This document shows, piece by piece, positions 719-19,966 of a stretch of 19,966 nucleotides of DNA (position 1 is its first letter; every line of letters begins with the position of its first letter). The stretch spans positions 1 to 19,966 of the forward strand of contig JBFGZE010000064.1 in the NCBI GenBank assembly GCA_041586955.1. The letters run 5' to 3'. A program made the translations under genes and the position numbers. The notes beneath the pieces are model-generated. The model was not told the origin of the DNA. It searched no databases and was given only the letters and a program-made list of their open reading frames with translations. Origin of the DNA: Bacteriovoracaceae bacterium. Lineage in GTDB: Bacteria; Bdellovibrionota; Bacteriovoracia; Bacteriovoracales; Bacteriovoracaceae.

Positions 719-1078
719 TTAGGAGAATTCCCAGCTTCTACTTTTTTTCTTATAGACAAGATTAAAATTGGATAAATTATCAAGCACGAGATCTTCTTTA
801 TCTCCCAATATCTTACGATCAGAATATTTAATAATAGCCGGACTCAATAAACTATCGACATGAACAGAAAACTGGACGAAGTCACCATCCTTAGGTTTAG
901 GAGGGAGGATGAAAACATCTTCATTTTTGGGCACGCAAATATCCCCAGAAGAGAGCTGAGTTCTACTATCAGTTCCCTCCTCATCTAATAACTTATTTCC
1001 ATTGATAAAACCGAGTACTGGAGTAAGAAGTACAGTACGCAAAAAATTCCAAATTAAGTTTCTTCTTCTAATGGCCAT
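719..1078 (-). CDS. Small protein with a twin-arginine-like leader and a phage long-tail-fibre (T4 gp34 N-terminal repeat-like) module
   Basis: N-terminus IRRRNLI followed by a hydrophobic stretch. C-terminal pattern ILPPKPKDGDFVQF...KILGDKEDLVLD...FNLVY...W resembles the LP..P..GD.V...I.G...DL.L...LVY...W tail-fibre repeat. Recognised by eye. Confidence 0.5.
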   Translation of the reverse strand: MAIRRRNLIWNFLRTVLLTPVLGFINGNKLLDEEGTDSRTQLSSGDICVPKNEDVFILPPKPKDGDFVQFSVHVDSLLSPAIIKYSDRKILGDKEDLVLDNLSNFNLVYKKKSRSWEFS

Positions 1079-1121: not shown

Positions 1122-2369
1122 GTGAAGAAATTTTTATGGCGTGGCTCCCGCTCGCAGGATGGCTTTAGTTTAGTTGAAGTTTTAGTGACTGCCGGTATTT
1201 TAGGGGGTTTGAGTGTCATTTATATGCGGCTTGCGGAAACTCAAATTAAGACCTCTAAAACCGTCGAGTCCCGCTATGAAACGACGGCCATACTTAATGA
1301 TATTCGAACTGTCTTATCGTCACCAGGATCCTGCCTGGAGTCGTTCAGCAATAATCCAGTCAGTCCCGGGGTCCCCTTTGCTTATAACCAAGGCGTTCTG
1401 CCCGACCCAGTCGGTCTAAGGCTAGTTCGAGGTGCCGCAACCACAGACCGCTTTATGGCAAACTCCGATGAAAACTTGGCCCAGGCCTATGGCAATGGCG
1501 CTATTAAAATTTTATCCTATTCACTAGATGATACCGACCCAACTGTTGGTATTGCCCCCGGAGAGACGATAGGAACCACCCATTTAATTGTTGAGTTTTA
1601 TCGTGGAAAAGGAGTTATGGGACAAGAAAGTATCACACGAAAAATAGTCCTGAACGTCGAGCGAGTCTCCCCTGGAGATAATAGTATTCGAGATTGTAAT
1701 ATTGCACCGGTTGGCCTAGGGCCCATGTCGTGTTCTTTATTACAAGGGGTTTACTCAGCAGGCCCACCTTCAAGGTGTGATCTCGGTCTTTACCGTGACC
1801 CTTCGGCCAATGATCAAAGAGACTATGCTATTTCAGAAAACTATATTCGAGATATGCTACTTCTTGACGACGATATGGGAACGTTAACGATTGGAAATAG
1901 TTCTGTAGCAGATGTCGTCACCATTAATGCGGCCACGACTATTTCCGGAAATACAGTCATTTCAGATGGCTTTACTTTTTCTATGGTTTCAGACAAAAAG
2001 CTAAAGGATGATATCCAAGAGCTAGGTCCAGTGCTTCAGAGTATCTCTAATTTACATGGCGTGCAATTCTCATGGAAATCAAATGGTCGGCCGGATATCG
2101 GCCTCATCGCCCAAGAGGTTCAAAAAGAGTTTCCACTACTAGTGCTTAAAGACAAAAAAACGGGAACTCTCTCAGTGAAATACGCACAATTAATTGCCGT
2201 AACGATTCAAGCGATCAAAGAGCTCAACGAAAAGAACCGTTTATTAGAAAAAGAAAACCAAGAGCTTATGATCAAGGGACGCGTTCAAGAAGAAAAAATT
2301 GATTTAATGGCAAAAGGCCTATGTCAAATCAATCCCACAATGGAAATCTGTAAATATCACAACGATTAA
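1122..2369 (+). CDS. Type IV pilin-like (prepilin N-methylation motif) protein fused to a C-terminal peptidase S74 intramolecular chaperone (tail-fibre ICA) domain
   Basis: GTG start with GAGGAA RBS. G|FSLVEVLVTAGILGG prepilin motif at 1161. S74 motifs SDKKLKDDI (Ser290 at 1989), LHGVQFSWK, IGLIAQEVQKEFPLLV and LSVKYAQLIAVTIQAIKEL, then a coiled coil. Confidence 0.88.
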   Translation: MKKFLWRGSRSQDGFSLVEVLVTAGILGGLSVIYMRLAETQIKTSKTVESRYETTAILNDIRTVLSSPGSCLESFSNNPVSPGVPFAYNQGVLPDPVGLRLVRGAATTDRFMANSDENLAQAYGNGAIKILSYSLDDTDPTVGIAPGETIGTTHLIVEFYRGKGVMGQESITRKIVLNVERVSPGDNSIRDCNIAPVGLGPMSCSLLQGVYSAGPPSRCDLGLYRDPSANDQRDYAISENYIRDMLLLDDDMGTLTIGNSSVADVVTINAATTISGNTVISDGFTFSMVSDKKLKDDIQELGPVLQSISNLHGVQFSWKSNGRPDIGLIAQEVQKEFPLLVLKDKKTGTLSVKYAQLIAVTIQAIKELNEKNRLLEKENQELMIKGRVQEEKIDLMAKGLCQINPTMEICKYHND

Positions 2370-2383
2370 ACTGAGGAGTTTAT

Positions 2384-2983
2384 ATGGGTCAACTATCAGA
2401 CAAATTAACTCAAATAGTGTTTGGAACAGGTGCGGGTCAACCATCCATCGCTCGCTGCCAAATCAATACTAACACCGGTGCCACGGTTGGTGCTGTCCCA
2501 AAAAATACAGCAAGTGCGACATCTCTCATTGTCAGTGGAGAATTTAAGGCCAATAAAGTATGGAATGCGGTATGGAATGATATCGCGGATTTTCAATTAT
2601 TAAACGATGAATTGAAATATGGCCTATGTTATTTTGACACTAAAGATGGCGCACGCATTTGTACCTCTCGTTGCCAAATGTCAGTCATTGGCATTGCCTC
2701 TGACTCTTTAGGATTTGGTGTAGGCTCAGGTGCTCACCCTGGCCAAGAAGTTCCGATAGCTGTTGCTGGTTGGGTTTTGGCCCATGTTGATCAAGAGTAT
2801 GAATGTGGCACTGTTTTAACAAACGATAAAAATGGATTCTTAACAAAGATGACAAAAGAGGAAAAACTTGAATATCCAGAGCGCATCGTGGCCCTCTATA
2901 AAAGGAAAGAAATGGACGAGTTCTGGGGGCCAGCGGGTCAACAAATTACTGTCAATGGTCGCCACTGGGTTAAAGTAAAATAA
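2384..2983 (+). CDS. Phage tail-fibre/appendage-like protein with a peptidase G2-like autoproteolytic chaperone domain
   Basis: GAGGAG RBS, 14 bp downstream of the pilin gene. KVWNAVWNDIADF resembles the NAVWNDYAE motif of phage fibre chaperones. Followed by VIGIASDSLGF, VPIAVAGWV, GTVLT, EYPERIV and ITVNGRHWVKVK. Confidence 0.62.
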   Translation: MGQLSDKLTQIVFGTGAGQPSIARCQINTNTGATVGAVPKNTASATSLIVSGEFKANKVWNAVWNDIADFQLLNDELKYGLCYFDTKDGARICTSRCQMSVIGIASDSLGFGVGSGAHPGQEVPIAVAGWVLAHVDQEYECGTVLTNDKNGFLTKMTKEEKLEYPERIVALYKRKEMDEFWGPAGQQITVNGRHWVKVK

Positions 2984-3034: not shown

Positions 3035-3337
3035 TTACTTGGGTTGCCAGATGCAACGATCGCTTTCTTCAAGGCAATCCTCTTGATCATTATCATACCG
3101 CGCGCAAAAATCGTCGTCTTCCTGGTTATTGTCTCGCTTTGACTCACAAGAATCTTTTTTTCCAGGAGTCCATAAACATTTATCCTGCTTGAGGCATTGC
3201 TTTTCATTATTGTCATACTCTTCACAATACTCCACATCGGTCTTCTTGTCCGATGCTTTAGCACCACATTCACCAGCTGATATATTTGTCATAATAGAAG
3301 TGACGAGTATAATTAAAAAAAATTGATATATTTTCAT
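3035..3337 (-). CDS. Small secreted Cys-rich acidic protein with two 40-aa repeats
   Basis: GAGGGAG RBS and Sec signal peptide (MKIYQFFLIILVTSIMTNISA). Eight Cys in two units of C-x13-C-x9-C-x5/6-C-x-W-x-P. Confidence 0.8.
   Translation of the reverse strand: MKIYQFFLIILVTSIMTNISAGECGAKASDKKTDVEYCEEYDNNEKQCLKQDKCLWTPGKKDSCESKRDNNQEDDDFCARYDNDQEDCLEESDRCIWQPK
3038..3274 (-). repeat. Intragenic tandem duplication of a 4-Cys module (aa ~22-61 and 62-100)
   Basis: YCEEYDNNEKQCLKQDKCLWTP aligns with FCARYDNDQEDCLEESDRCIWQP. Cys pairs at 24/64, 38/78, 48/88 and 54/95. Confidence 0.8.
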
Positions 3338-3523: not shown

Positions 3524-4600
3524 ATGACAATCGAAAAAAACTTTCTCCATAAAATGACGAATACTAATATTGATAATATTGAAAGTATGGACTTTGTTTT
3601 AAACCTTGATATTTTAGATGGATGTGTCCACTTCTGTGACGGCTGCTTCGTCAGAAAGAATAATGATATTAAAAATTGGGATACAGTCCTTGAAAAGGCC
3701 CTTACAATTGCTAAAGAATTAACGTCTAAGGGACTCCGCTTTAGGGAGTTAATATTAGGGCCAACCGACTTCTTTAGTGCTCATAATACTAAGGCGATTC
3801 TATTAGACCCACGCTTTCAGTCCCTGCTTACTCTCAACGAAAAAACACGTATCACCGCCTCTTGTGTTTTTGATTCCTTGGACAAAAACCATTTCCTAGA
3901 AATTTTTAATATTCTTGATGATACTCGCTATTTTAGAAAAGAGATGATTTTAGAGTTTCTCGTGCCTTTACACGCGGAAAAGATGCTTAACAAAGAGGCG
4001 CAATACATACAGGATAATAAATGGGCATTAGAGCATTTTAAAAATAAATCCCCTAAAGTGATCGACTGGTCTTATGTTATTAATATTAATAATAATGAAT
4101 TATTAAAAAATAATTATATGACAGTTGTTGATACCATTAAAAGAGAGTTTAATACTATTCTTGAATTTAACCCGGGGTTTTTTAGAACCAATAATAATCA
4201 ATTAATTGATAAAAACCTTACTTATTGGAAAGGCTTTCTGCAGAAAATCCTTGAAGGAAATCACTACTCAAACCTCTGTTTAACCAGCCTCGATAAGCAC
4301 CATAATACCGCCAATACCATCTGCCTTAACCTTATTGGGGATAAGGTCTATTTTAGTCCCTTTATCTATGAACAAATTATTGAGGCAAGCGATCTCTTTG
4401 CGGTAACCCCTCTCGATGGCGAAACAATTTTAAATAAGCATCTCGATCTCCAAAAGCAAGGCTTCCGCTATGCTGAAAAAACCAAGGAATGTATTGATTG
4501 CGAATTTCTCACTCCCTGTGTTGGCCGCAATGTCTTAAATTATATGGAAGTCAAAAACAAAGAGGATTGTTTATTTCCGGATAAATTTAAAGATCTTTAA
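3524..4600 (+). CDS. Atypical radical SAM protein (GPTDFF-type paralog 1) with a C-terminal 4-Cys auxiliary motif
   Basis: ATG at 3524 with AAGGGG RBS, preferred over the track's TTG at 3470. CVHFCDGC (CxxxCxxC); LILGPTDFF where GGE is expected; C-terminal CIDCEFLTPC-x16-C. Confidence 0.85.
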   Translation: MTIEKNFLHKMTNTNIDNIESMDFVLNLDILDGCVHFCDGCFVRKNNDIKNWDTVLEKALTIAKELTSKGLRFRELILGPTDFFSAHNTKAILLDPRFQSLLTLNEKTRITASCVFDSLDKNHFLEIFNILDDTRYFRKEMILEFLVPLHAEKMLNKEAQYIQDNKWALEHFKNKSPKVIDWSYVININNNELLKNNYMTVVDTIKREFNTILEFNPGFFRTNNNQLIDKNLTYWKGFLQKILEGNHYSNLCLTSLDKHHNTANTICLNLIGDKVYFSPFIYEQIIEASDLFAVTPLDGETILNKHLDLQKQGFRYAEKTKECIDCEFLTPCVGRNVLNYMEVKNKEDCLFPDKFKDL

Positions 4601-5679
4601 CTCTTATCAAGAAATTTATAGAATGACTTAAGGGGACAGGTATCCATGTCCCTTTTTCTATTTCGCCAATCCCATTGGGTAAAGCAACGAAATCCACATT
4701 TTTGAAAATACTCACAGGAGAGACATCCCATCTCATCCAAAAAATTTTGCATCATCCCGGCATTATCTTTTAAATTTAATTTTGTATTAAAATCTTTTTG
4801 CTCGTAGCGATGCCAACGACAATTAGAGGTTCTATTATCGGGAAAAATTGTGATCTTATTTAATGATAAGCAATGCATTTTATTAAAGTTATTATTAATT
4901 AAATCGGCCACGGGCTGAATTCGAGGGTACTTTTCTGCAATAAATTTATACCAATTAAAAAACTCTGAGTCTGTGGGGACGGATTCATCTGAACCAGCAT
5001 CTGGTATAAAATCATCAAAATAGATATTAAAATTATTATATAAAAATTTAAAATAGAGATCTTTATCTTTAATAAATTCCTTAATCGATTCGCTTGTTCC
5101 GACAAGATTAATTGAGCAAATATACTCTGGCCCAAACCACGAGATATTATCGGTATAAAGCCTAGACATAGGCCTTCCATGAAAATCATACGACGCTATA
5201 AGATAACTATCAATTTCGGCCTTCCTAAGGTCGAGAAGGAGTTTTTTAACTCTCTCCCTTTTCTTAAAGAGGAAGTTACTGACGATAACGACCTTCATCT
5301 TAAAATTGAACTCATCAAAATAAGGTTTTAGCTCTTTTAGAAGATCAGTATAGTCTTGGCATAAGCGATCCATCCAGCGATCTTGTAATAGTTCACCTCC
5401 GACCAAATTAATTTGAACTAAATCCACTCGTCCTCGTTGTTTTTTTAAAAAGTCAACAATCAGAGGAATCTTAGAAAACATTTCTTCTCGTGTCAGTCCT
5501 GTTTGAGATTTCTTATCGTGAAAGCAAAAGTCACAGGTAATATTACAATTTTCAAAAAGAGTGAGTTCAATTTCGGCAATATCAGGCCTTTTACTTTCAA
5601 GGATCGATTTAGTGGCGCTCATGGGTAGCGCTGGAGACTTAAAGCTATCGGAGTTTTCTTTTTCTTTAAGCGTAATCAT
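4597..5679 (-). CDS. Radical SAM protein with a SPASM/twitch-like C-terminal Cys cluster
   Basis: CNITCDFC; LVGGE; C-terminal HC...NC...CLSCEYFQKCGFRC...TC. Confidence 0.9.
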   Translation of the reverse strand: MITLKEKENSDSFKSPALPMSATKSILESKRPDIAEIELTLFENCNITCDFCFHDKKSQTGLTREEMFSKIPLIVDFLKKQRGRVDLVQINLVGGELLQDRWMDRLCQDYTDLLKELKPYFDEFNFKMKVVIVSNFLFKKRERVKKLLLDLRKAEIDSYLIASYDFHGRPMSRLYTDNISWFGPEYICSINLVGTSESIKEFIKDKDLYFKFLYNNFNIYFDDFIPDAGSDESVPTDSEFFNWYKFIAEKYPRIQPVADLINNNFNKMHCLSLNKITIFPDNRTSNCRWHRYEQKDFNTKLNLKDNAGMMQNFLDEMGCLSCEYFQKCGFRCFTQWDWRNRKRDMDTCPLKSFYKFLDKS

Positions 5680-5710
5680 CGCAGACCTAGGGAAAAAATT
5701 AGAATATTTT

Positions 5711-5751
5711 TATAGTTCTTTAACTATAGATTTCCCCGTTATTACTGTCAA
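5711..5751 (-). promoter_or_regulatory. Sigma70-type promoter for the 4597-5679 gene, overlapped by a short inverted repeat
   Basis: Minus strand TTGACA (5751-5746), 17-nt spacer, TATAGT (5728-5723). Inverted repeat TATAGTT-cttt-AACTATA at 5711-5728. Confidence 0.6.
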
Positions 5752-5760
5752 ATTATAAGC

Positions 5761-6807
5761 CTACATCAGTTCTAATAGATTGAGGACTTTAGAAGGGAAC
5801 GGGCATTCCTTAATTTCCTTAAGCTCCATAATTGAAAGAACATTCTTCCCGACACAGGAATTGAGATTGCTGCAATCAGAGCAATCATGAGTTTTAAGAC
5901 TGTAAAGGTATTGCGACCTCATGAGAGTATCCACTTTATCAATAATCGAGCGAGGGCCGATAGTTTTGATTCGTAAACCTTCATCGCATTCATTGAGAGG
6001 CCTATAGATGAAAGGAGAAATGTAAAGGTGTTCATCAGAATAATTGAGGTAGAGGACTTGAAAAAAGTGATAATCCTTCTCTCCTATTGGCAATAGAAGC
6101 CCTTTATAATTTTCATTTGATATATAATCATTTAGGAAATCCTTGAGGTTTTGTAATCTTACTATCAAACCTCCTTGGGCACCTGTCATTTGTTCAGGTA
6201 AAAACTGAATGACAAACTCGACGTCTTGCCCTAAGGAAGTTTCAAGAGATGACACGATTTTATCACTAAATTCTTCAAATAATTTACAATCATTATAGTC
6301 CACATTAAAGGAAAAGATAGGCCTTCGCTGATGATTATTAAAATGTTTCGAAAGCGAAGAGAGTGTTCCTAGAAAGTCTTCATCCGCTTGTAAAAGCCTC
6401 GCTAGAGGGCACGTTAAGACAATATTAATATCCAGAGTTTGAGGATATAGGAGCGGATTATTGAGCAGTGAAAAAGGGCCTAATAGAGCTTTTACATCAC
6501 CATTATCTACTTCATCAAGTTTTATGGGTATGGTGATCCTCATATAGGGATGTTCTTTCAAAAAACCTTGAAAATGAGGACTGCTCATAACCCCATCGAC
6601 CTGAAAACTTCTGGAACCTAAAACAAGCCCCTTAAACCGATAATTCTGATCAACCAGTTGATTGATGGCGTTTAAAGTTAAAAGAAAAGGATGCTTAGCG
6701 CTCAATTTTTGGCGCAACAAACCTGCAATATTAAGTACAATATTTATTTTATGAGAAATGCTATCATCCAAATGCTGATTGAGTTTTTCAATGCTACTTA
6801 TGGCCAT
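5761..6807 (-). CDS. Degenerate radical SAM-fold paralog lacking CxxxCxxC (GPTDFF-type paralog 2)
   Basis: Aligns with the 3524 and 11446 proteins (RFKGLVLGSRSF vs RFRELILGPTDFF; LYISPFIY vs VYFSPFIY; CSDCSNLNSCVGKNV-..C). No N-terminal Cys triad. Intact 348-aa ORF. Confidence 0.75.
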   Translation of the reverse strand: MAISSIEKLNQHLDDSISHKINIVLNIAGLLRQKLSAKHPFLLTLNAINQLVDQNYRFKGLVLGSRSFQVDGVMSSPHFQGFLKEHPYMRITIPIKLDEVDNGDVKALLGPFSLLNNPLLYPQTLDINIVLTCPLARLLQADEDFLGTLSSLSKHFNNHQRRPIFSFNVDYNDCKLFEEFSDKIVSSLETSLGQDVEFVIQFLPEQMTGAQGGLIVRLQNLKDFLNDYISNENYKGLLLPIGEKDYHFFQVLYLNYSDEHLYISPFIYRPLNECDEGLRIKTIGPRSIIDKVDTLMRSQYLYSLKTHDCSDCSNLNSCVGKNVLSIMELKEIKECPFPSKVLNLLELM

Positions 6808-6880
6808 GCCAAATTATGGCATATTTTTAAGTTTGACCCAATAATTATTCCCACTGCAAAGGTAATGATCCTACCATTAA

Positions 6881-6950
6881 GTTAGGTTTACACCAACAAG
6901 GTCAGCGTGTAACATTTAACTATAATCCATCGAGGTACATCAGGAGGAGA
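6881..6950 (+). promoter_or_regulatory. Putative promoter/operator and RBS of the candidate substrate gene
   Basis: Perfect TATAAT at 6921-6926 with no consensus -35. Dyad TTACAC (6888-6893)-N13-GTGTAA (6907-6912), flanked by GTTA/TAAC. AGGAGG RBS at 6942-6947. Confidence 0.45.
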
Positions 6951-6955
6951 TAAAC

Positions 6956-7492
6956 GTGACAACACATGTTGATCGAGCGGCTAAAATTCAAAAATTCATT
7001 GATGATGTTATCACCCCAGCAACCAATGCATTTGAAGTTGGTAGGGAGGCCATTCCTGGAGGTCAAGGCCCCATCCCCAATATTCTCTCTCATTGTGATG
7101 AGTTTAGAATCACTCCTAATGATTTTAATACAATCGCCCCTCGTGGCGGGCAACTCACGGCCTCCGCCTTGGCCGATATTTTTCAATATTACGCCTATAT
7201 TCTAACTTCCTGTCGGCGGGCCACAATCAGTCGGTACGGAGGAGGAGTTATCTCCACCGATAAAGTCACAACCCTAAACTCTAACTATAGAATGAACTTT
7301 GCCGCCTTTAAGTCGGCGGTTACCGCAAGTCCCAACCCCTTAGATAATCTTCAACCTGGCAACCCCGCTGCTTCAGCTGCGCTAGATGCCTTAATCGCAA
7401 GACTTGCTTCAATTGTTACAACCCAGCGTAATATGGCCCCCGTCAACGTTACGATATGCCATGGCTGCCATAGCTCACGCGGAAGACGTTAA
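6956..7492 (+). CDS. Candidate radical SAM substrate/precursor protein with a C-terminal CHGCHSSRGRR tail
   Basis: GTG start with a strong AGGAGG RBS. Ala/Gly/Thr-rich 178-aa protein, unlike the neighbouring enzymes in composition, with no signal peptide. Cys/His/Ser-rich basic C-terminus; central position in the rSAM cluster. The ORF is secure but the function is inferred. Confidence 0.65.
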   Translation: MTTHVDRAAKIQKFIDDVITPATNAFEVGREAIPGGQGPIPNILSHCDEFRITPNDFNTIAPRGGQLTASALADIFQYYAYILTSCRRATISRYGGGVISTDKVTTLNSNYRMNFAAFKSAVTASPNPLDNLQPGNPAASAALDALIARLASIVTTQRNMAPVNVTICHGCHSSRGRR

Positions 7493-7520
7493 ATAAATTT
7501 TAAAAAGAGGTAGATTTTAA

Positions 7521-8288
7521 ATGAATAATGACCAAGAAATTAAATATATTGATGTTCCTCTTAAAGTAGAGGAGTTAAAAGAGTTTATCGAAAATAAGAC
7601 AAAATATTCTTATTTTATTAATTACCAAACCTCTGAACTCAAAGATTTGGTACTTCTCAATTATATTTCCAACCTCGAGTTACCAGCAGAAATCATCATG
7701 GACAATTGCTCCTATGATGAAAAAGCAGGTCTGCTTAAGGCCTATATGGATACACGGAATATTGTTAAAATAGACTCTCTTGCTCTTAACGTCGCCAAGA
7801 TCCTTTTAGATTATCGAGGCCTTGACACTACAGAAATATTTAACCGGCCCTATTTCGATCAAAATGAAAGTAAGCAATTTATCAATGATCATAAAGAGCT
7901 TATCCAGAAATGGGAACATTTTCTCGAGAGCACTATTATTTTCGCCCAATCTTGTGTCAAAGAACTTAACGAGCTTCTTAAAATTAAAGAAGATATTGAA
8001 GTTATCAATGACAGTCGTTATGTTGGATCGAATATAGTCAATCTATTTTCTATCCCCTCTTTTTCCGAATTATTCTTTCTCGTCCCCTTAAGAACGGAAC
8101 TCAAATATTTCAGGCCACAATTTGAAGAGAGAATGTTTAAGGGCAGAAGTTTTTACGATTATTATTTTTGTCAGCAAAATGATGTTTTAAATATGTTTTT
8201 AGCGCATATTGAAAATGATATTACTCGTAATGATATGAACGCTGCTTATAAAGAAGCACAGGCCATTTTAATGGAAAGCAATCCATAA
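7521..8288 (+). CDS. Hypothetical protein, rSAM-cluster accessory factor
   Basis: AGAGGT RBS; 255 aa, soluble; 28 bp downstream of the candidate substrate. No catalytic motif recognised. Confidence 0.75.
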   Translation: MNNDQEIKYIDVPLKVEELKEFIENKTKYSYFINYQTSELKDLVLLNYISNLELPAEIIMDNCSYDEKAGLLKAYMDTRNIVKIDSLALNVAKILLDYRGLDTTEIFNRPYFDQNESKQFINDHKELIQKWEHFLESTIIFAQSCVKELNELLKIKEDIEVINDSRYVGSNIVNLFSIPSFSELFFLVPLRTELKYFRPQFEERMFKGRSFYDYYFCQQNDVLNMFLAHIENDITRNDMNAAYKEAQAILMESNP

Positions 8289-8293
8289 TTTAA

Positions 8294-9376
8294 TTATTCT
8301 TGCCCCATAAACCCTGCTAGAACCTTTTTATAAAGAGTAGCATTTTCATCGGCATTGGCCTTTAATTCATGCATCAAGCTCTTTGGCGCCGCACATACAT
8401 CACCTTGCCAACCAAGTTGGTGGCAATCACCATTACAAATATCATAGACCGGGCATTCATTACATATAGGGTTTCTCAAGACCTCGTCATTGATATTACA
8501 AAGACGACCAGTACTTCCCATTAAGGCGGAAATATCATCATTAATGGTGCCAAAAGTATTAGAGACAGCGCCGTTAGGGCAACCACCAATGGTACCATCA
8601 GCATTAAGCGTCAGGACTTTCTGCTCACAACTACGCGAACGACATCCTGAATGAGTATTATAGACCAGCGAAGATAGGATTGAGTCCAGAAACAGATTAT
8701 CAATAGACTCCCAGGTTTTATGCTCAACGGTTTGTATCCACATAAGATGGAGCCAACGATCAATATCAATATTTGAGGGCATAATATTATTTTCTAAATT
8801 TAAAAGGGCATTTCCATCAGCAGTCACCCTCTCAAAGTTAATATATTTCACCCCCAAAGACGCCAGATCTTTAATTATATCTATCGGCTGTAGTTCTTTA
8901 ATAACATTTCCGGTCAAACTCACCATAACAGTAATCTGATGACCTCGGTCGGCCAATTCTTTGACATTGGAGCGCCATAATTTTTCTTGTGCCGAATTGG
9001 TCCAGCGAATACCATAATCCCAGGAAGTTCCCCACGACTTCTGGCAAATTTTATCTAAAACAGCTACTTTATCCTCTGTTAATTTATAAGTCAGGTTAGT
9101 TTGAATAGACCACCAAATATTGGGCCATAAGTCTTTAATTCCATTCCAGGCCTCAAACATCATTTCTGTAGGACATAAGAAGGGCTCTCCCCCGTGAAAG
9201 GAGATATGGCCATTATCATAATGAGGATGATAGCGCTTTAAACGCTTAAAAAAATCGATTGTTTTTGCGACATCAAAAAACCCCTTTTTACCGTTACTAC
9301 CATTGGTGAAACAATGAGAGCAATTGAGCTGGCAGGTGTCAGTTGTTTTAAGATAAACGATTAAGTCATTTGCCAA
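8294..9376 (-). CDS. Radical SAM/SPASM domain protein (peptide/protein maturase-like)
   Basis: TTG start with GAGGA RBS. CQLNCSHC; SFHGGEP; IQTN; SPASM-like CRSRSC...DGTIGGCP...CNECPVYDICNGDC...C. Confidence 0.92.
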   Translation of the reverse strand: MANDLIVYLKTTDTCQLNCSHCFTNGSNGKKGFFDVAKTIDFFKRLKRYHPHYDNGHISFHGGEPFLCPTEMMFEAWNGIKDLWPNIWWSIQTNLTYKLTEDKVAVLDKICQKSWGTSWDYGIRWTNSAQEKLWRSNVKELADRGHQITVMVSLTGNVIKELQPIDIIKDLASLGVKYINFERVTADGNALLNLENNIMPSNIDIDRWLHLMWIQTVEHKTWESIDNLFLDSILSSLVYNTHSGCRSRSCEQKVLTLNADGTIGGCPNGAVSNTFGTINDDISALMGSTGRLCNINDEVLRNPICNECPVYDICNGDCHQLGWQGDVCAAPKSLMHELKANADENATLYKKVLAGFMGQE

Positions 9377-9481
9377 AGTCTTTTTCCTCGTTGATCATTA
9401 GTATAATTCTTTATGCTAGTAAAAATGGTAACATTCTAACTTTCAAAAGAACAATAGTTTTGGCAGAGAAATGGAATTCAA

Positions 9482-10537
9482 TTGGAACTAATCGTTAAAC
9501 CGACAGAGATATGTAATTTCGCTTGCACTTTTTGTAGCTCACCTCACTTATCAAAAGAAAAAGGGAAAATACTCGATATTGATAAAATATTTCAATTCTT
9601 AAAGCGCTTTCCCCAAACCAATACTCTTATTATCAACGGTGGCGATCCACTAATGGTTAGACCGAACTATTATTGGAGAATATTAGAACATATTGAAGCG
9701 AATAATCTAATCACCAAAATAAGTTTTACCACCAATCTTTGGGACTTCTATTTGCACCCTGAGAAATGGACAGCATTATTTCAGCATGAGAGAGTTGGGG
9801 TCACGACCTCCTTTAATTATGGTGAGACCAGAAGAGTCAGCAAATCAAAAAATTTTACCGAAGACTTATTTTGGAAAGTATCAGACAAATTTTCAAATTT
9901 AATTGGGTATCGGCCCGATTTTATCAGTGTTGTCAATGATCAAAATGAATCTACCGCTCTCGACAATGTTCTTCTGGCCAAGAAGATGAATGTCGAATGT
10001 AAATTAAACTACGCCATGGCCTCTGGCAGAGAATCTAGACCCTATCAATTATCAAAAATATATCAAATATACCTAGAGATTATTAAAAATAAACTAACCC
10101 CCTGGGAATTTAATACCAAAGAATTAATTAAGGGGATAAATAAACGGACAACAATTTGCCCCCGCAACCGTACTTGCGACTCAGGAATACGCTGTATCCA
10201 ACCTTCTGGTGATTATTATAGCTGTGGCGCCTTTGGCGATGATCACGAACATAGTATTGATTTTGATCAAGAGATGAATGATACTAATATCTCTACCCCA
10301 TTATCTGATAATTTTGAATTATCATCATTAAAAATGGAATGCTTTGGATGTCCCATGTTCGAGATATGTAATGGATGCCATAAAACTATTAGTGACTTAA
10401 AACGATTCAATATGGTCGAGTCTCATTGCCAACTAATGAAGCAATTGGAAAAAGAAATATGTCTTCTCGGTAACGATTTTAACCTCTTCAAAGTAAAAGA
10501 GATGGACAATGTTGGAAAACATAACTCTTTCAATTAA
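9482..10537 (+). CDS. Radical SAM/SPASM domain protein (peptide/protein maturase-like)
   Basis: TTG start. LIVKPTEICNFACTFC; INGGDP; FTTN; SPASM-like CPRNRTC...GDYYSC...CFGCPMFEICNGC...HC. Confidence 0.92.
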   Translation: MELIVKPTEICNFACTFCSSPHLSKEKGKILDIDKIFQFLKRFPQTNTLIINGGDPLMVRPNYYWRILEHIEANNLITKISFTTNLWDFYLHPEKWTALFQHERVGVTTSFNYGETRRVSKSKNFTEDLFWKVSDKFSNLIGYRPDFISVVNDQNESTALDNVLLAKKMNVECKLNYAMASGRESRPYQLSKIYQIYLEIIKNKLTPWEFNTKELIKGINKRTTICPRNRTCDSGIRCIQPSGDYYSCGAFGDDHEHSIDFDQEMNDTNISTPLSDNFELSSLKMECFGCPMFEICNGCHKTISDLKRFNMVESHCQLMKQLEKEICLLGNDFNLFKVKEMDNVGKHNSFN

Positions 10538-11462
10538 CCCTATTTATCAATGCAATTTCCGTTGCGACTTCTGCTATTTAAGGCCAGAACAATTATCGGA
10601 TCCCAAAACCCTATCTCTCAATAAACTTGAGGCCAGACTCAAAGAAATCTCATCCCACCGTCGAATTTCTTTTATCGACCTCTATGGTGGTGAGATCGCC
10701 CTATTAAAAAATGATTACCTCAACGAGATGCATGCCATCGTACGGAATTTCTACCGCGGGCCCATTAATGTCATCACCAACTTAAGTATGAATATTCCCT
10801 ATTTTGATAAAGAAGATGTGACCCTTTCCGTCAGCTGGGATTACGATGGTCGGGCCCAATATGACAAAGTCTTGAGTCATATCATGGGAATGAGTAAAGA
10901 TGTTCATATTCTCATGCTCGCTTCCCCTCAAATGCTAAAATGGGATGTTCAAAAAGTCACAGACGTGGTCTCACTTTTTAATCTGGCCAAAAATATTAAA
11001 AGTGTCGAAATCAAACCTTATTCAGCGAATCAATCGAACCAATATAATATTACCTATAATGCTTTCGAAGAATTTATTAAATTATGGCTCAGCTTAAAAG
11101 AAACCTTCCAATTCCAATTTATCAACGAGCAATTAATCCTTGATTCATTAAAAGGCGTTAAAAACTCTTGGTCAGATGACCATCTCTATATAACTCCCAA
11201 TGGGAAATTGGCCGTTTTAGATTTTGATACAAATTATAATGAGCAATTTATTGAACTTAATAATTTTGAGCAATATACCCAGTGGCATAAAAAAGAAAAA
11301 ATTAAAATTACCCAAAACAAAGAATGCTCATCTTGTTCCTATATGGGCCATTGCCTTAGTGAACATTTAAAAAATCATTCAAATCATAAAAACTCATGTG
11401 ATGGTTTCAAAGGTCTATTGGATTGGTATAAGGAGGAAGATCATTATGGCACTAGTGAGTGA
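10509..11462 (+). CDS. Radical SAM protein with a C-terminal 4-Cys auxiliary motif
   Basis: CNFRCDFC; LYGGE; VITN; C-terminal CSSCSYMGHCLSEH...SC. Overlaps the upstream gene by 29 bp. Confidence 0.9.
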   Translation: MLENITLSINPIYQCNFRCDFCYLRPEQLSDPKTLSLNKLEARLKEISSHRRISFIDLYGGEIALLKNDYLNEMHAIVRNFYRGPINVITNLSMNIPYFDKEDVTLSVSWDYDGRAQYDKVLSHIMGMSKDVHILMLASPQMLKWDVQKVTDVVSLFNLAKNIKSVEIKPYSANQSNQYNITYNAFEEFIKLWLSLKETFQFQFINEQLILDSLKGVKNSWSDDHLYITPNGKLAVLDFDTNYNEQFIELNNFEQYTQWHKKEKIKITQNKECSSCSYMGHCLSEHLKNHSNHKNSCDGFKGLLDWYKEEDHYGTSE

Positions 11463-12549
11463 TAACTTTCAGGCGATGGCAATCAGTGATAAAATGAATA
11501 TCACGATGGATCAGGCGTCTACCTTCAATATTCGCTTCAATATAGAGGTTCTCAAGGGTTGTGAGTTTCATTGCCCAGGTTGCTATGTGAATCGGGATAA
11601 TGCCTTTGACGAAAATGATCTCGAAATTCTACTACAGGCTTCCGAACAATTCAGCACTAATGGATTCCACTTCGAAGAAATTATTATCGGCCCAACTGAT
11701 TTTTTCGCCGCCTATAATACGATTGACCTCATTACCAATCCCAAATTTGCCCAATTAATTCAACCCAAAAGAGTCATGACGATCCTTTCAACTCTCCTTA
11801 GTCACAAAAATGAAATCCTTAAACGTATAGGTCTTGTCAATCAATATCTAGGCAAGGATTTTGAAGTAGAAGTTCTTATTCCTTTTGATGTCATGAAAAT
11901 TCTTTCTAAAGATCCACAATACATTCACCAATTAAAGGAAAAAATTGAATTACTACAATTCTTTGATGCGGATGTTGAATATGCCCTACAAATGAATATT
12001 CAAGATACCTCACAACTTGAACATTTTGACCTTTTCGAGGTGGCCCAATATATAAAAAATGAGTTCAGCTCCATTACCGAGTTTAATCCCTCATTTCTGC
12101 GTACCGGCAATGACCAATTGATTATCAAAACCATGAGTGCATGGAACCAAATGCTCAATAAAAACTTCTGTCATAAAATGTCTAAGACCATGGATAATAT
12201 TTTATTTACCATGGGAGATCCCATCCATGCAGGACTAAATGAGGTCACTTATAATTTTAAAAAAGGTATTTTTTATGAATGCCCTTTTATTTATGAAAAT
12301 GTCTTTGACAAAGGATCGCGCTTTAAAATTACACCTAATGGAGAAAATGGTCGTTATCTCTTAGATGACTTTATTAACCATCGCCATCAGGTTGATCGCC
12401 AGCAATTGCAATATCTTGAGCAAACAGATGAATGCTCGACTTGCCCTCATGTTATATCCTGCGTCGGCAAACAAGTAATTCATTATATGATGGATAAAAA
12501 AATAACTCATTGTCTCTTGGCCAAAGATGTCATGGATCTCTATGCTTAA
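11446..12549 (+). CDS. Atypical radical SAM protein (GPTDFF-type paralog 3)
   Basis: ATG at 11446 with AGGAGG RBS, preferred over the track's 11398. CEFHCPGC; IIIGPTDFF; EFNPSFLRT; C-terminal CSTCPHVISC-x16-C. Confidence 0.87.
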   Translation: MALVSDNFQAMAISDKMNITMDQASTFNIRFNIEVLKGCEFHCPGCYVNRDNAFDENDLEILLQASEQFSTNGFHFEEIIIGPTDFFAAYNTIDLITNPKFAQLIQPKRVMTILSTLLSHKNEILKRIGLVNQYLGKDFEVEVLIPFDVMKILSKDPQYIHQLKEKIELLQFFDADVEYALQMNIQDTSQLEHFDLFEVAQYIKNEFSSITEFNPSFLRTGNDQLIIKTMSAWNQMLNKNFCHKMSKTMDNILFTMGDPIHAGLNEVTYNFKKGIFYECPFIYENVFDKGSRFKITPNGENGRYLLDDFINHRHQVDRQQLQYLEQTDECSTCPHVISCVGKQVIHYMMDKKITHCLLAKDVMDLYA

Positions 12550-13012
12550 AGATCATAAGTTCAGGCAACACCTCTTTCTCACCTTCAGTGGCCCTGAAAA
12601 ACTAAAAAAGGGCAAAACCTATATTTATCCCAATCTTTCAAAGGAAGAATTAATTGGCCATATTACCGCCTATTTTAGGGTGGAGCAAAAAGATCTTATC
12701 TATCCCGCCAAATCCTATTGTGTCGCCATCATTTATGCCCTTTTATTAGAGGAATATTTTGGTGAGGACTTTTATCATACCCTCAATGATCCTGAACTAT
12801 TTCAAAATACAGATCAATACTTCCTGCCCTATTCACAGAATAAAGAGATTTACGATCAGGTCTTGCTGCAACTCAAAGAAGAGGGAACTTTTCCCCAATT
12901 GAACTTAGAACTCGACCAAGTTCAAACCACGGTCAATTGTTTTAAAGATGAGTTTTTTGTTAATTTTACAGATTTAAAGAAATTGGTCCAGGATTTGGCC
13001 TTTCAAGCATAA
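12542..13012 (+). CDS. Hypothetical protein, rSAM-cluster accessory factor
   Basis: Likely ATG at 12542 overlapping the upstream stop (ATGCTTAA); alternative start at 12527. Distinctive YPAKSYCVAIIYA...FGEDFY..LNDPEL...DQYFLPY segment. Last gene of the rSAM operon. Confidence 0.75.
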   Translation: MLKDHKFRQHLFLTFSGPEKLKKGKTYIYPNLSKEELIGHITAYFRVEQKDLIYPAKSYCVAIIYALLLEEYFGEDFYHTLNDPELFQNTDQYFLPYSQNKEIYDQVLLQLKEEGTFPQLNLELDQVQTTVNCFKDEFFVNFTDLKKLVQDLAFQA

Positions 13013-19224: not shown

Positions 19225-19966
19225 ATGGAACTATATAGTATTTTAATTCAGTCATTTGTTTTAATAACACTTGTCTTATTTAGTGCCTGTAAAAATAAAG
19301 TCAATATCCAAATAAAACGCGGGCCCACAAACACGCCCGCCTCTAGGGCCAATATTAGCTCCATTAATATTGCCAACGACCAAGTTGTTCTTATTGGCAC
19401 AAATCTCAACCATGTCACCAATGTGCGAGTAACTGGTGCCAACTCTTTTGATGAAACATTTACCATTGATGCCGCTTCCAATAATACCACCCTTTACGCC
19501 AATGCTTCCAATGCCATTAATGTTTTGGCCGAGGGACTGTTTGATTTAATCATTACCGATGCCCATGGGGCGGCGACTTTTCCAATAAATATTTCTGTCA
19601 CCGATGGTACCGTGACCGCAGCGAAACTTTCCACCGCTGGAGCAAGCTCAGGTGATATCTATCAATTTAATGGCGTCAATTGGCAATTAACCAATCTTAA
19701 TGGCGCTAGTATTTTGGGAACCTGGGATGCTAATGCCAATAACCCTATTTTGACCGATGCCTCTGGAAATTGTGATGGGAATAGCAACGGCGAGTATTAT
19801 ATTGTCTCCGTTGCAGGGACAACCAATATCGATGGGGTTAACACCTGGAATGCTGGTGATTGGATCTTTTGTCATAATAGCGGTGCTTGGGAGCGAATAC
19901 AAAACGGTGGTGCTGTTAGCCTATTTAATGATCTCGCCGATGTTGATACAGTGAGCTCCACTCCCA
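19225..19966 (+). CDS. Fibre/adhesin-like lipoprotein with phage tail-fibre-type motifs; 3'-truncated and not in the supplied ORF track
   Basis: Open from ATG 19225 to the window end: MELYSILIQSFVLITLVLFSA|CKNK..., an Ig-like beta region, then VTDGTVTAAKL, GDIYQFNGVNW, GTWDANANNP, GEYYIVSVAGTTNIDGVNTWNAGDWI and FNDLADVD. Confidence 0.8.
   Translation, partial: MELYSILIQSFVLITLVLFSACKNKVNIQIKRGPTNTPASRANISSINIANDQVVLIGTNLNHVTNVRVTGANSFDETFTIDAASNNTTLYANASNAINVLAEGLFDLIITDAHGAATFPINISVTDGTVTAAKLSTAGASSGDIYQFNGVNWQLTNLNGASILGTWDANANNPILTDASGNCDGNSNGEYYIVSVAGTTNIDGVNTWNAGDWIFCHNSGAWERIQNGGAVSLFNDLADVDTVSSTP

Follow-up and report, generated by a model that had tools for sequence, protein, structure and literature searches.

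A 19,966-nucleotide contig from a Bacteriovoracaceae bacterium (JBFGZE010000064.1; the whole contig is the window analysed here) carries a ten-gene cluster at positions 3524..13012, in which seven genes of a radical S-adenosylmethionine (SAM) enzyme group surround the gene for a small protein, D, that ends in a Cys/His tail. This cluster, hereafter the kit (genes A to J), is real, intact and undescribed in the literature searched. We infer, with modest confidence, that the enzymes modify the tail of D and that D then forms the tip of an exported fibre of phage origin, with which prey is recognised. The parts of this reading differ in strength: D is quite probably the substrate of the enzymes, its assembly with neighbouring fibre genes is rather likely, and a role in predation, argued by analogy with the MAT fibres of Bdellovibrio and by the parallel with phages, is evenly poised. 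No published description of the kit or of its link to predator fibres was found in a search that left out subscription journals and bioRxiv supplements, and the word "radical" is absent from the main text of PMC11656739, PMC7824862 and PMC13147790. The kit belongs to a larger module of 13-14 genes, which begins at position 719:

719..1078, minus strand: Tat-type protein of 119 amino acids (aa), a candidate export carrier (Arg-Arg pair invariant in homologs; linkage to the kit; TatC in the genome)
1122..2369, plus strand: prepilin-S74 fibre of 415 aa with the motif SDKKLK (PF13884, TIGR02532 and PHROG tail-fibre matches)
2384..2983, plus strand: short fibre stub (~65 aa) followed by a phi29-gp12-type intramolecular chaperone with the motif WN-DIADF (fold match 3gqh)
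3035..3337, minus strand: Cys-rich 100-aa protein with a signal-like N-terminus, an optional passenger (weak homologs in few kits)
3524..4600, plus strand: A, divergent radical-SAM-like protein with CxxxCxGC and a single auxiliary four-Cys motif (phrog_31457)
4597..5679, minus strand: B, radical SAM protein with five conserved C-terminal Cys (phrog_1802)
5761..6807, minus strand: C, pseudo-radical SAM protein, a paralog of A and I that lacks the SAM-binding Cys triad (sequence comparison)
6956..7492, plus strand: D, candidate substrate and structural protein, 178 aa long and folded, with the disordered tail CHGCHSSRGRR (predicted fold, tail alignment, virion homolog)
7521..8288, plus strand: E, conserved accessory protein of no family (phrog_20767, 6.8e-57)
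8294..9376, minus strand: F, radical SAM protein with a SPASM-like seven-Cys C-terminus (phage homologs, Cys pattern)
9482..10537, plus strand: G, best-conserved radical SAM protein, with a SPASM-like eight-Cys C-terminus (Radical_SAM; anSME is its nearest solved relative)
10509..11462, plus strand: H, radical SAM protein whose auxiliary Cys/His motif is short (Pfam Radical_SAM, Cys pattern)
11446..12549, plus strand: I, paralog of A (31% identical) with CxxxCxGC (sequence comparison)
12527..13012, plus strand: J, conserved accessory protein of no family (phrog_20737, 7e-27)

The ten open reading frames (ORFs) lie where a preliminary description of the sequence had placed them, and its inventory of ten genes, six CxxxCxxC proteins, a motif-less relative (5761), two accessory genes and a 178-aa protein with a Cys/His tail is correct throughout; its limits enclose the ten genes but fall short of the module, to which 719, 1122 and 2384 also belong. 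The CxxxCxxC motif is found in 3524 (C34/38/41), 4597 (C45/49/52), 8294 (C15/19/22), 9482 (C11/15/18), 10509 (C15/19/22) and 11446 (C39/43/46). Six of the 23 long ORFs with CxxxCx[FYHMWG]C in the 3.46-Mb genome fall in the cluster, which is therefore not a chance grouping. Since 4597, 5761 and 8294 are encoded on the minus strand, the cluster is not one operon; a promoter scan came close to chance (57 versus 42 +/- 6).

The description of these proteins as a radical SAM family holds to differing degrees. Only 9482 and 10509 pass the Pfam Radical_SAM (PF04055) cut-off and 8294 is borderline (28.6 versus 29.5), but 4597 and 11446 match weakly, 3524 has no Pfam match and 5761 lacks the Cys triad. 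Auxiliary C-terminal Cys motifs had likewise been ascribed to all six CxxxCxxC proteins, but a full SPASM-like set is confined to F and G, which have seven and eight conserved C-terminal Cys, respectively, against four to five in the others; none reaches the cut-off of 27 of the SPASM model TIGR04085 (F 26.7, G 24.7, the next 16.5). 5761 is paralogous to 3524 (BLAST 7e-27) and 11446 (2e-9) and keeps their C-terminal CxxCxxxxxC..C, and motif-less counterparts occur in two other genomes. No enzyme attains any NCBIfam family cut-off, cofactor pathways included, which leaves the proposal of an uncharacterised modification system standing. The best NCBIfam matches of F and G, all below cut-off, are peptide or protein maturases, the best Protein Data Bank (PDB) match of G is anSME (3e-9), and the closest relatives of G with a taxonomic label are Bacteriovoracaceae bins.

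The candidate substrate is a protein with a confidently predicted fold (pLDDT 86) and a disordered tail (pLDDT 56 in the last block). The family norm for this tail is (CHxS)3-RGRR. Among 98 distinct homologs, chosen by their CH...RxRR end, the 16-residue (CHxS)3-R(G)RR register is kept, with Cys at -16, -12 and -8 in 92, 91 and 96 sequences, respectively; their bodies are mostly 15-45% identical to that of the window's D, the conserved part being the extreme C-terminus. The tail of the window's D, CHGCHSSRGRR, has the same sequence in contigs from two of three sequencing runs of a single study, the third having no cover there. Its final CHSSR resembles the sulfatase motif CxPxR. The predicted fold of D matches phage proteins, among them a 296-aa protein of Atu_ph07; against solved folds there is no clear match, the best being to a designed helical protein (Z 6.2), a result from which novelty can be neither claimed nor denied. 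No longer, fused forms of D were found, which counts as weak evidence. D, E and J match no Pfam or NCBIfam model, and the ESM Atlas gave nothing usable for E and J. E usually follows D directly and is present in all 47 long viral loci and 15 of 16 long bacterial ones, and J was seen in 71 of the 79 viral loci and in 29 of the 36 bacterial ones. A Pfam scan of 24 window proteins revealed no dedicated protease or exporter, in agreement with the preliminary description, which had noted their absence and argued for a modified protein rather than a bacteriocin; the confident fold of D and the virion location of a homolog support that view.

Variants of the D tail were seen elsewhere. In one genus (L053, L054, L055, L056 and L065) the tails lack the middle CH unit (CHGNFPPPCHGSRGRR), and these loci hold three A-type paralogs and a JmjC gene. 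Two further tails keep His with fewer Cys (L058:9062-9670, CHSNHCSHSNHGSRGRR; L066:4310-4918, CHSSHSSHSSHSSRGRR) and are nearer to His-x-Ser repeats. Two tandem D genes are found in L128 and L129.

The kit has relatives in large tailed phages. PHROG families 1802, 31457, 20767 and 20737 match eight of the ten cluster genes, with no PHROG match for D or 2384. Homologs of F occur in 15 of 50,697 phage records (36-49% identical), and the loci of Atu_ph07, Phosso, RSL2 and DT01 encode, among enzyme homologs, a D-like protein ending in (CHxS)3-R(G/S)RR. Of 323 viral stretches found with a G alignment, 80 were kept and one duplicate locus was dropped, leaving 79; in the 47 of these that are long (at least 18 kb), D is present in 44, E and B in 47, and F, H and J in 46. 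A fibre with a gp12-type or related chaperone lies near the kit in 33 of the 79 loci and in 26 of the 47 long ones. Viral G sequences form one clade (support 0.967) among diverse bacterial G, and F of Atu_ph07 and Phosso is nested among bacterial F (both trees midpoint-rooted).

In Atu_ph07 virions the D homolog gp170 was detected with eight peptides (35% coverage) and the fibre gp176 with 14, while gp165, gp168, gp169, gp171 and gp172 are not listed among the virion proteins in the available part of that report (PMC6102473). The maturases of this phage are thus not published virion proteins. In the same part of its table, gp170 (31.9 kDa) has its peak in band 1, level with the band of 117-137-kDa proteins or higher (PMC6102473). 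Of the 20 proteins in the 28-37-kDa range for which three or more peptides are given there, no other peaks in the top band; two further proteins of this size with one or two peptides also do (PMC6102473). The peak of the 66-kDa gp176 coincides with that of 50-55-kDa proteins, which would be expected after cleavage of its chaperone (PMC6102473).

In Bdellovibrionota the kit is chromosomal, flanked by housekeeping genes and under purifying selection, a setting reported here for the first time. Among 238 genomes of the order, G is present in 25 and D in 25, with 24 in common and both exceptions at contig ends; the co-occurrence anticipated in the preliminary description is thus borne out. Because the D profile was built partly from carrier genomes, the informative result is a match in just one further genome. 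A scan of one genome per species, with a query drawn mostly from Bdellovibrionota and hence biased towards them, returned 45 loci, 34 of them from Bdellovibrionota lineages that include Bdellovibrionaceae; two more were added by gene content and tree to give 36 Bdellovibrionota-type loci, and nine were treated as phage-like. Sampled flanks differ between genera and comprise glyA/fabF/acpP, etf, sda, dinG, cytochrome bc, tlyA, aroC (beside a second kit, described below) and, once, IS21. All 15 kit genes compared between genomes G180 and G173 show dN/dS of 0.00-0.09. Between G180 and G174 the D body is only 42% identical, versus 63-89% for enzymes and helpers, as expected for a binding protein whose recognition tail is fixed. 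One locus (L263:866-7948, genome G084) has a gene for a 2355-aa lipoprotein-like protein inserted mid-kit, between F and E/D.

Three genes beside the kit distinguish the bacterial loci. The short 2384 gene lies near 21 of the 36 Bdellovibrionota-type loci, the pilin-S74 fibre near 18 and the Tat protein near 16 (13, 11 and 9 of 16 long bacterial loci, respectively), and none of the three near any of the 79 viral loci. S74 and gp12-type domains are self-cleaving chaperones. The S74 domain of 1122 (PF13884, 5.5e-13) bears SDKKLK, its N-terminus scores above the cut-off of the prepilin model TIGR02532, and it has PHROG tail-fibre matches. 2384 has no Pfam match and no signal peptide. Its top fold match is 3gqh (Z 11.2, rmsd 3.2, 108 residues aligned, model 66-199 on chain 692-854); the next row, a capsid decoration-type fold, is tied within 1 (Z 10.4), and the gp12 identity is favoured because register and sequence motif agree. 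The sole PDB sequence match is to gp12 residues 687-743 (E 0.83), at the WS-DFAEY site, and Asp69 aligns with the catalytic Glu of gp12; nothing specific on gp12 cleavage chemistry was found in the literature. This domain is C-terminal in all 120 longer homologs listed, some of which have tail-collar or other fibre domains. It has no match in cultured phage records or in a single-sequence viral scan. An alignment-based viral scan gave 30 loci, mostly long fibres, only one of them with this kit, in the bacterial-type arrangement. L149, a record in the viral collection, combines pilin-S74, short 2384 and the full kit and is probably a bacterial island classed as viral.

The Arg-Arg pair of the Tat protein 719 is kept in all of 20 aligned homologs, and its mature domain is small; the genome encodes both TatC and a prepilin peptidase. 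No convincing PHROG or PDB match to 719 was obtained, and a suspected likeness to phage fibre repeats was not confirmed. A predicted complex of 2384 with mature 719 scored 0.40, versus 0.01 for the best control, which lends it slight support: of 157 solved pairs 116 attained this mark, as did 2 of 215 mismatched ones, with just 18 of those solved pairs and both mismatches at 0.60 or below. At least 17% of contacts agree between runs, and the partner pLDDT is at least 78.

Side observations on these genes include eight letter differences at 2030-2144, in the S74 part of 1122, in the contig of one sequencing run, with few elsewhere (probably a strain variant), and two or three pilin-S74 fibre genes per locus in L128, L129, L130, L134 and L138. 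Inside the module, the secreted-looking 3035-3337 protein has eight Cys in repeated C-x-x-Y-D-N-x-x-x-x-C units and weak homologs within the kit of just two other examined genomes (G126 and G200). At the far end of the window, 19225-19966 holds a gene start with a lipoprotein-like N-terminus and a weak phrog_29238 match, cut by the contig end.

The slot beside the fibre genes can hold a different kit:

L087:9946-19995 (genome G015): second kit, in the same slot in 9 of 238 genomes; also L086, L088-L091, L094 and L255

This type II kit has about seven radical SAM genes around a protein that starts with MACSG and ends in the nine-Cys tail CxCNxDCxCNxVCxCHNxCxCxY, together with amidinotransferase-like, DegT aminotransferase, PIG-L and polysaccharide deacetylase genes. 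2384 is found in 31 of the 238 genomes, 21 with the window's type I kit, nine with type II and one at a contig end; none of the 31 has both, although related genomes in these counts are not independent. Type II appears at three places in a tree of 22 2384 sequences. The congeners G199 (type II) and G222 (type I) are sisters in this tree, and their kits differ at one chromosomal site whose flanks share 86-91% identity across 9.4 kb to one side and 97% across 5.3 kb to the other. The type II target of G199 leads directly into SDKRLK and thus looks like the end of a chaperone-folded fibre. The rest of its S74 domain is in an overlapping frame (L255:11965-12839), an arrangement that may represent a split chaperone, a frameshift or a sequencing error. 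D and the type II target share no detectable homology (hhalign probability 0.9%), and a viral scan for the latter found none.

Taken together, the kit may represent a protein-maturation system common to large tailed phages and Bdellovibrionota chromosomes. In the cytoplasm, a core of F, G, H and B, with variable A, I and C and the helpers E and J, would act on the unstructured Cys-His-x-Ser tail of D, most likely by cross-linking or oxidation of Cys, His or Ser, with RGRR-COOH as the recognition handle. Candidate reactions, by comparison with the nearest enzyme families, are the formation of thioether or His-carbon cross-links or of Cys-derived metal-binding heterocycles, and oxidation of Cys to formylglycine at the final CHxSR of D, anSME being the nearest solved relative of G. 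The product would be a rigid tip, probably metal-binding or covalently oligomerised. In phages, D is incorporated into the virion next to a fibre folded by a chaperone. The bacterial counterparts of this fibre bear host export signals: the prepilin-S74 trimer (1122) would enter a type IV pilus, and export of D and of the signal-less 2384 stub would fall to the Tat protein 719. The cell would thereby gain a surface adhesin tailored by chemistry, one that most plausibly recognises Gram-negative prey, with tip chemistry altered by kit swapping. A more general proposal, that predators and large phages share interchangeable chemistry for receptor-binding tips, in which Cys-rich tails become cross-linked or metallophore-like, display is pilin-anchored and Tat-loaded, and kit swaps change prey specificity, is offered tentatively. 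The preliminary interpretation of a protein-modification system stands, but within a larger setting that it missed, namely the phage connection, the three linked fibre and export genes at 719-2983 and the swappable second kit.

If the proposal is true, the kit would add to radical SAM chemistry a class that devotes four to seven enzymes to tailoring a single structural protein, and would show that post-translational chemistry, and not sequence alone, can set adhesin specificity. It would also supply a concrete, testable determinant of the prey range of Bdellovibrionota, whose recognition of prey is poorly understood. Since culturable Atu_ph07 has the homolog in its particles, this chemistry is readable by mass spectrometry now.

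Several points weigh against this reading. Modification of D has been observed nowhere, and D has neither a signal peptide nor a hydrophobic N-terminus. The window's D has only two CH units with odd spacing, the shortest tail in the alignment, yet all seven genes of the enzyme family are present at its locus, so the number of enzymes is not tied to the length of the tail. The linkage to fibres is incomplete: 4 of the 25 G-positive genomes (83-97% complete) show no 2384, G083 lacks 1122 and 719 within the 20 kb mapped, and the phiKZ-like RSL2 and DT01 have the kit and no recognisable gp12-type fibre in the upstream genes examined. The kit is found in just ~10% of the family's genomes and is therefore not essential for predation. 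Disulfides or stable oligomers are alternatives to enzymatic cross-links for the migration of gp170, as the gel buffer given in the available part of the virion study lists no reductant (PMC6102473). Finally, many loci add glycosyltransferase-like (GT8-like), B12-dependent radical SAM, JmjC or 2-oxoglutarate (2OG) oxygenase genes, which fit small-molecule or glycan synthesis equally.

These added genes also speak for the best-placed alternative, in which the enzymes make an independent small molecule, sugar or metal cofactor that the fibre or D then bears or chelates; the D tail would be a ligand or attachment site instead of the radical substrate, and the appendage would be retained but not the peptide chemistry. 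The DegT aminotransferase, PIG-L and polysaccharide deacetylase genes of the second kit point the same way, as does the excess of seven enzymes over the few tail residues of the window's D. The window's kit, however, is intact and has no recognisable transferase, ligase or sugar gene, and both the resemblance of G to anSME, which modifies a protein, and the maturase matches of F and G, below cut-off as they are, argue for a protein target. This alternative is a minority possibility.

Less probable still, though it is the main functional rival of prey recognition, is anti-phage defence of the HXS type, in which matured D would sit in the periplasm and block phage DNA entry (superinfection exclusion if phage-borne), the fibre genes being decoys or mere neighbours. 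HxsA is matured by radical SAM enzymes and has His-x-Ser repeats and basic residues, according to the part of the HXS report available (PMC13128918), and patchy distribution with swapping is typical of defence islands. Against this, no match to the HxsA or HxsD models was obtained, HxsC scored 36.6 versus a cut-off of 267.9, HxsB was not among the matches listed, and PADLOC returned weak partial matches alone (viperin N-terminal stretches, JetA and PDC-M51A). The D homolog is moreover a virion protein, and defence leaves the tight linkage to fibre and pilin genes unexplained.

A decaying prophage, a tailocin or a mis-binned phage contig would account for the PHROG matches of eight of the ten genes and for the phage-type copies in some bins (nine of 45 loci), but is already largely refuted and very improbable. 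A Pfam scan of the window proteins also found BamB, a TPR protein and an ABC-3 permease on the contig. The genome, which is 88% complete, gave no match to sheath or baseplate J in a search that did not extend to capsid and terminase families, and no sheath was found in five carrier genomes of 1-5 contigs. Strong purifying selection, a common chromosomal site and bacterial signal peptides on the fibre genes are equally at odds with this explanation. Least probable of all is a known cofactor pathway (heme d1, pyrroloquinoline quinone or molybdenum cofactor) or a c-type cytochrome maturation locus, as suggested by CHGCH in the window's D and by cytochrome bc genes beside some loci: all such models fall far below cut-off, flanks vary between genera, D has no export signal, and CxxCH is found only in the window's D among 25 aligned, the others having CxxxCH or longer. 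Heme CxxCH, prophage and known-cofactor readings were accordingly rejected.

Compared with known systems, the kit departs from classical peptides made on ribosomes and modified after translation (RiPPs: ranthipeptides, sactipeptides and cyclophanes), whose precursors are short leader-core peptides with a dedicated protease or exporter: D is folded, 178 aa long and conserved at its C-terminal end, and the kit brings neither gene. c-type cytochromes combine a conserved CxxCH with an export signal, and D has neither. The anSME/SPASM maturases (DynA, DarE and PapB) share with the kit a radical SAM core and auxiliary Cys clusters; the kit differs in scores far below their cut-offs, in the lack of leader peptide, protease and transporter, and in its several paralogs that have just one auxiliary motif or lack the SAM triad. 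A closer parallel is the HXS system (HxsA/B/C/D), in which, in the part of the report available, a folded protein that is exported is matured by radical SAM enzymes at His-x-Ser repeats, with a small helper; it uses two enzymes rather than four to seven, and HxsA has a peptidoglycan-binding domain (PMC13128918). D differs from HxsA in the Cys before each His, the C-terminal RGRR, the fold, the virion homolog, the linked fibre genes and the lack of a signal peptide.

The second kit can be likened, by description, to Campylobacter phages CP220 and CPt10, which carry swappable blocks of multiple radical SAM genes at one locus with an amidinotransferase; the part of that report available treats these blocks as potential metabolic genes and proposes neither a substrate nor a connection to fibres (PMC2853527). 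The C-terminal chaperone of phi29 gp12 (PDB 3gqh and 6qz9) agrees in fold and register with residues 66-199 of 2384. It differs in its motif (WS-DFAEY versus WN-DIADF, with self-cleavage putative in 2384) and in its context, 2384 being a stand-alone bacterial gene with a stub of ~65 aa. The MAT fibres of Bdellovibrio, from a paper whose main text contains neither "pilin" nor "radical" (PMC10769870), are the nearest counterparts of 1122. Like it, they are phage-like S74 trimeric fibres with SDxxxK, and they serve predators as prey adhesins; the part of that paper available gives them ~1000 aa, a signal peptide and a conserved 130-aa beta-rich N-domain (PMC10769870), whereas 1122 has 415 aa and a prepilin N-terminus.

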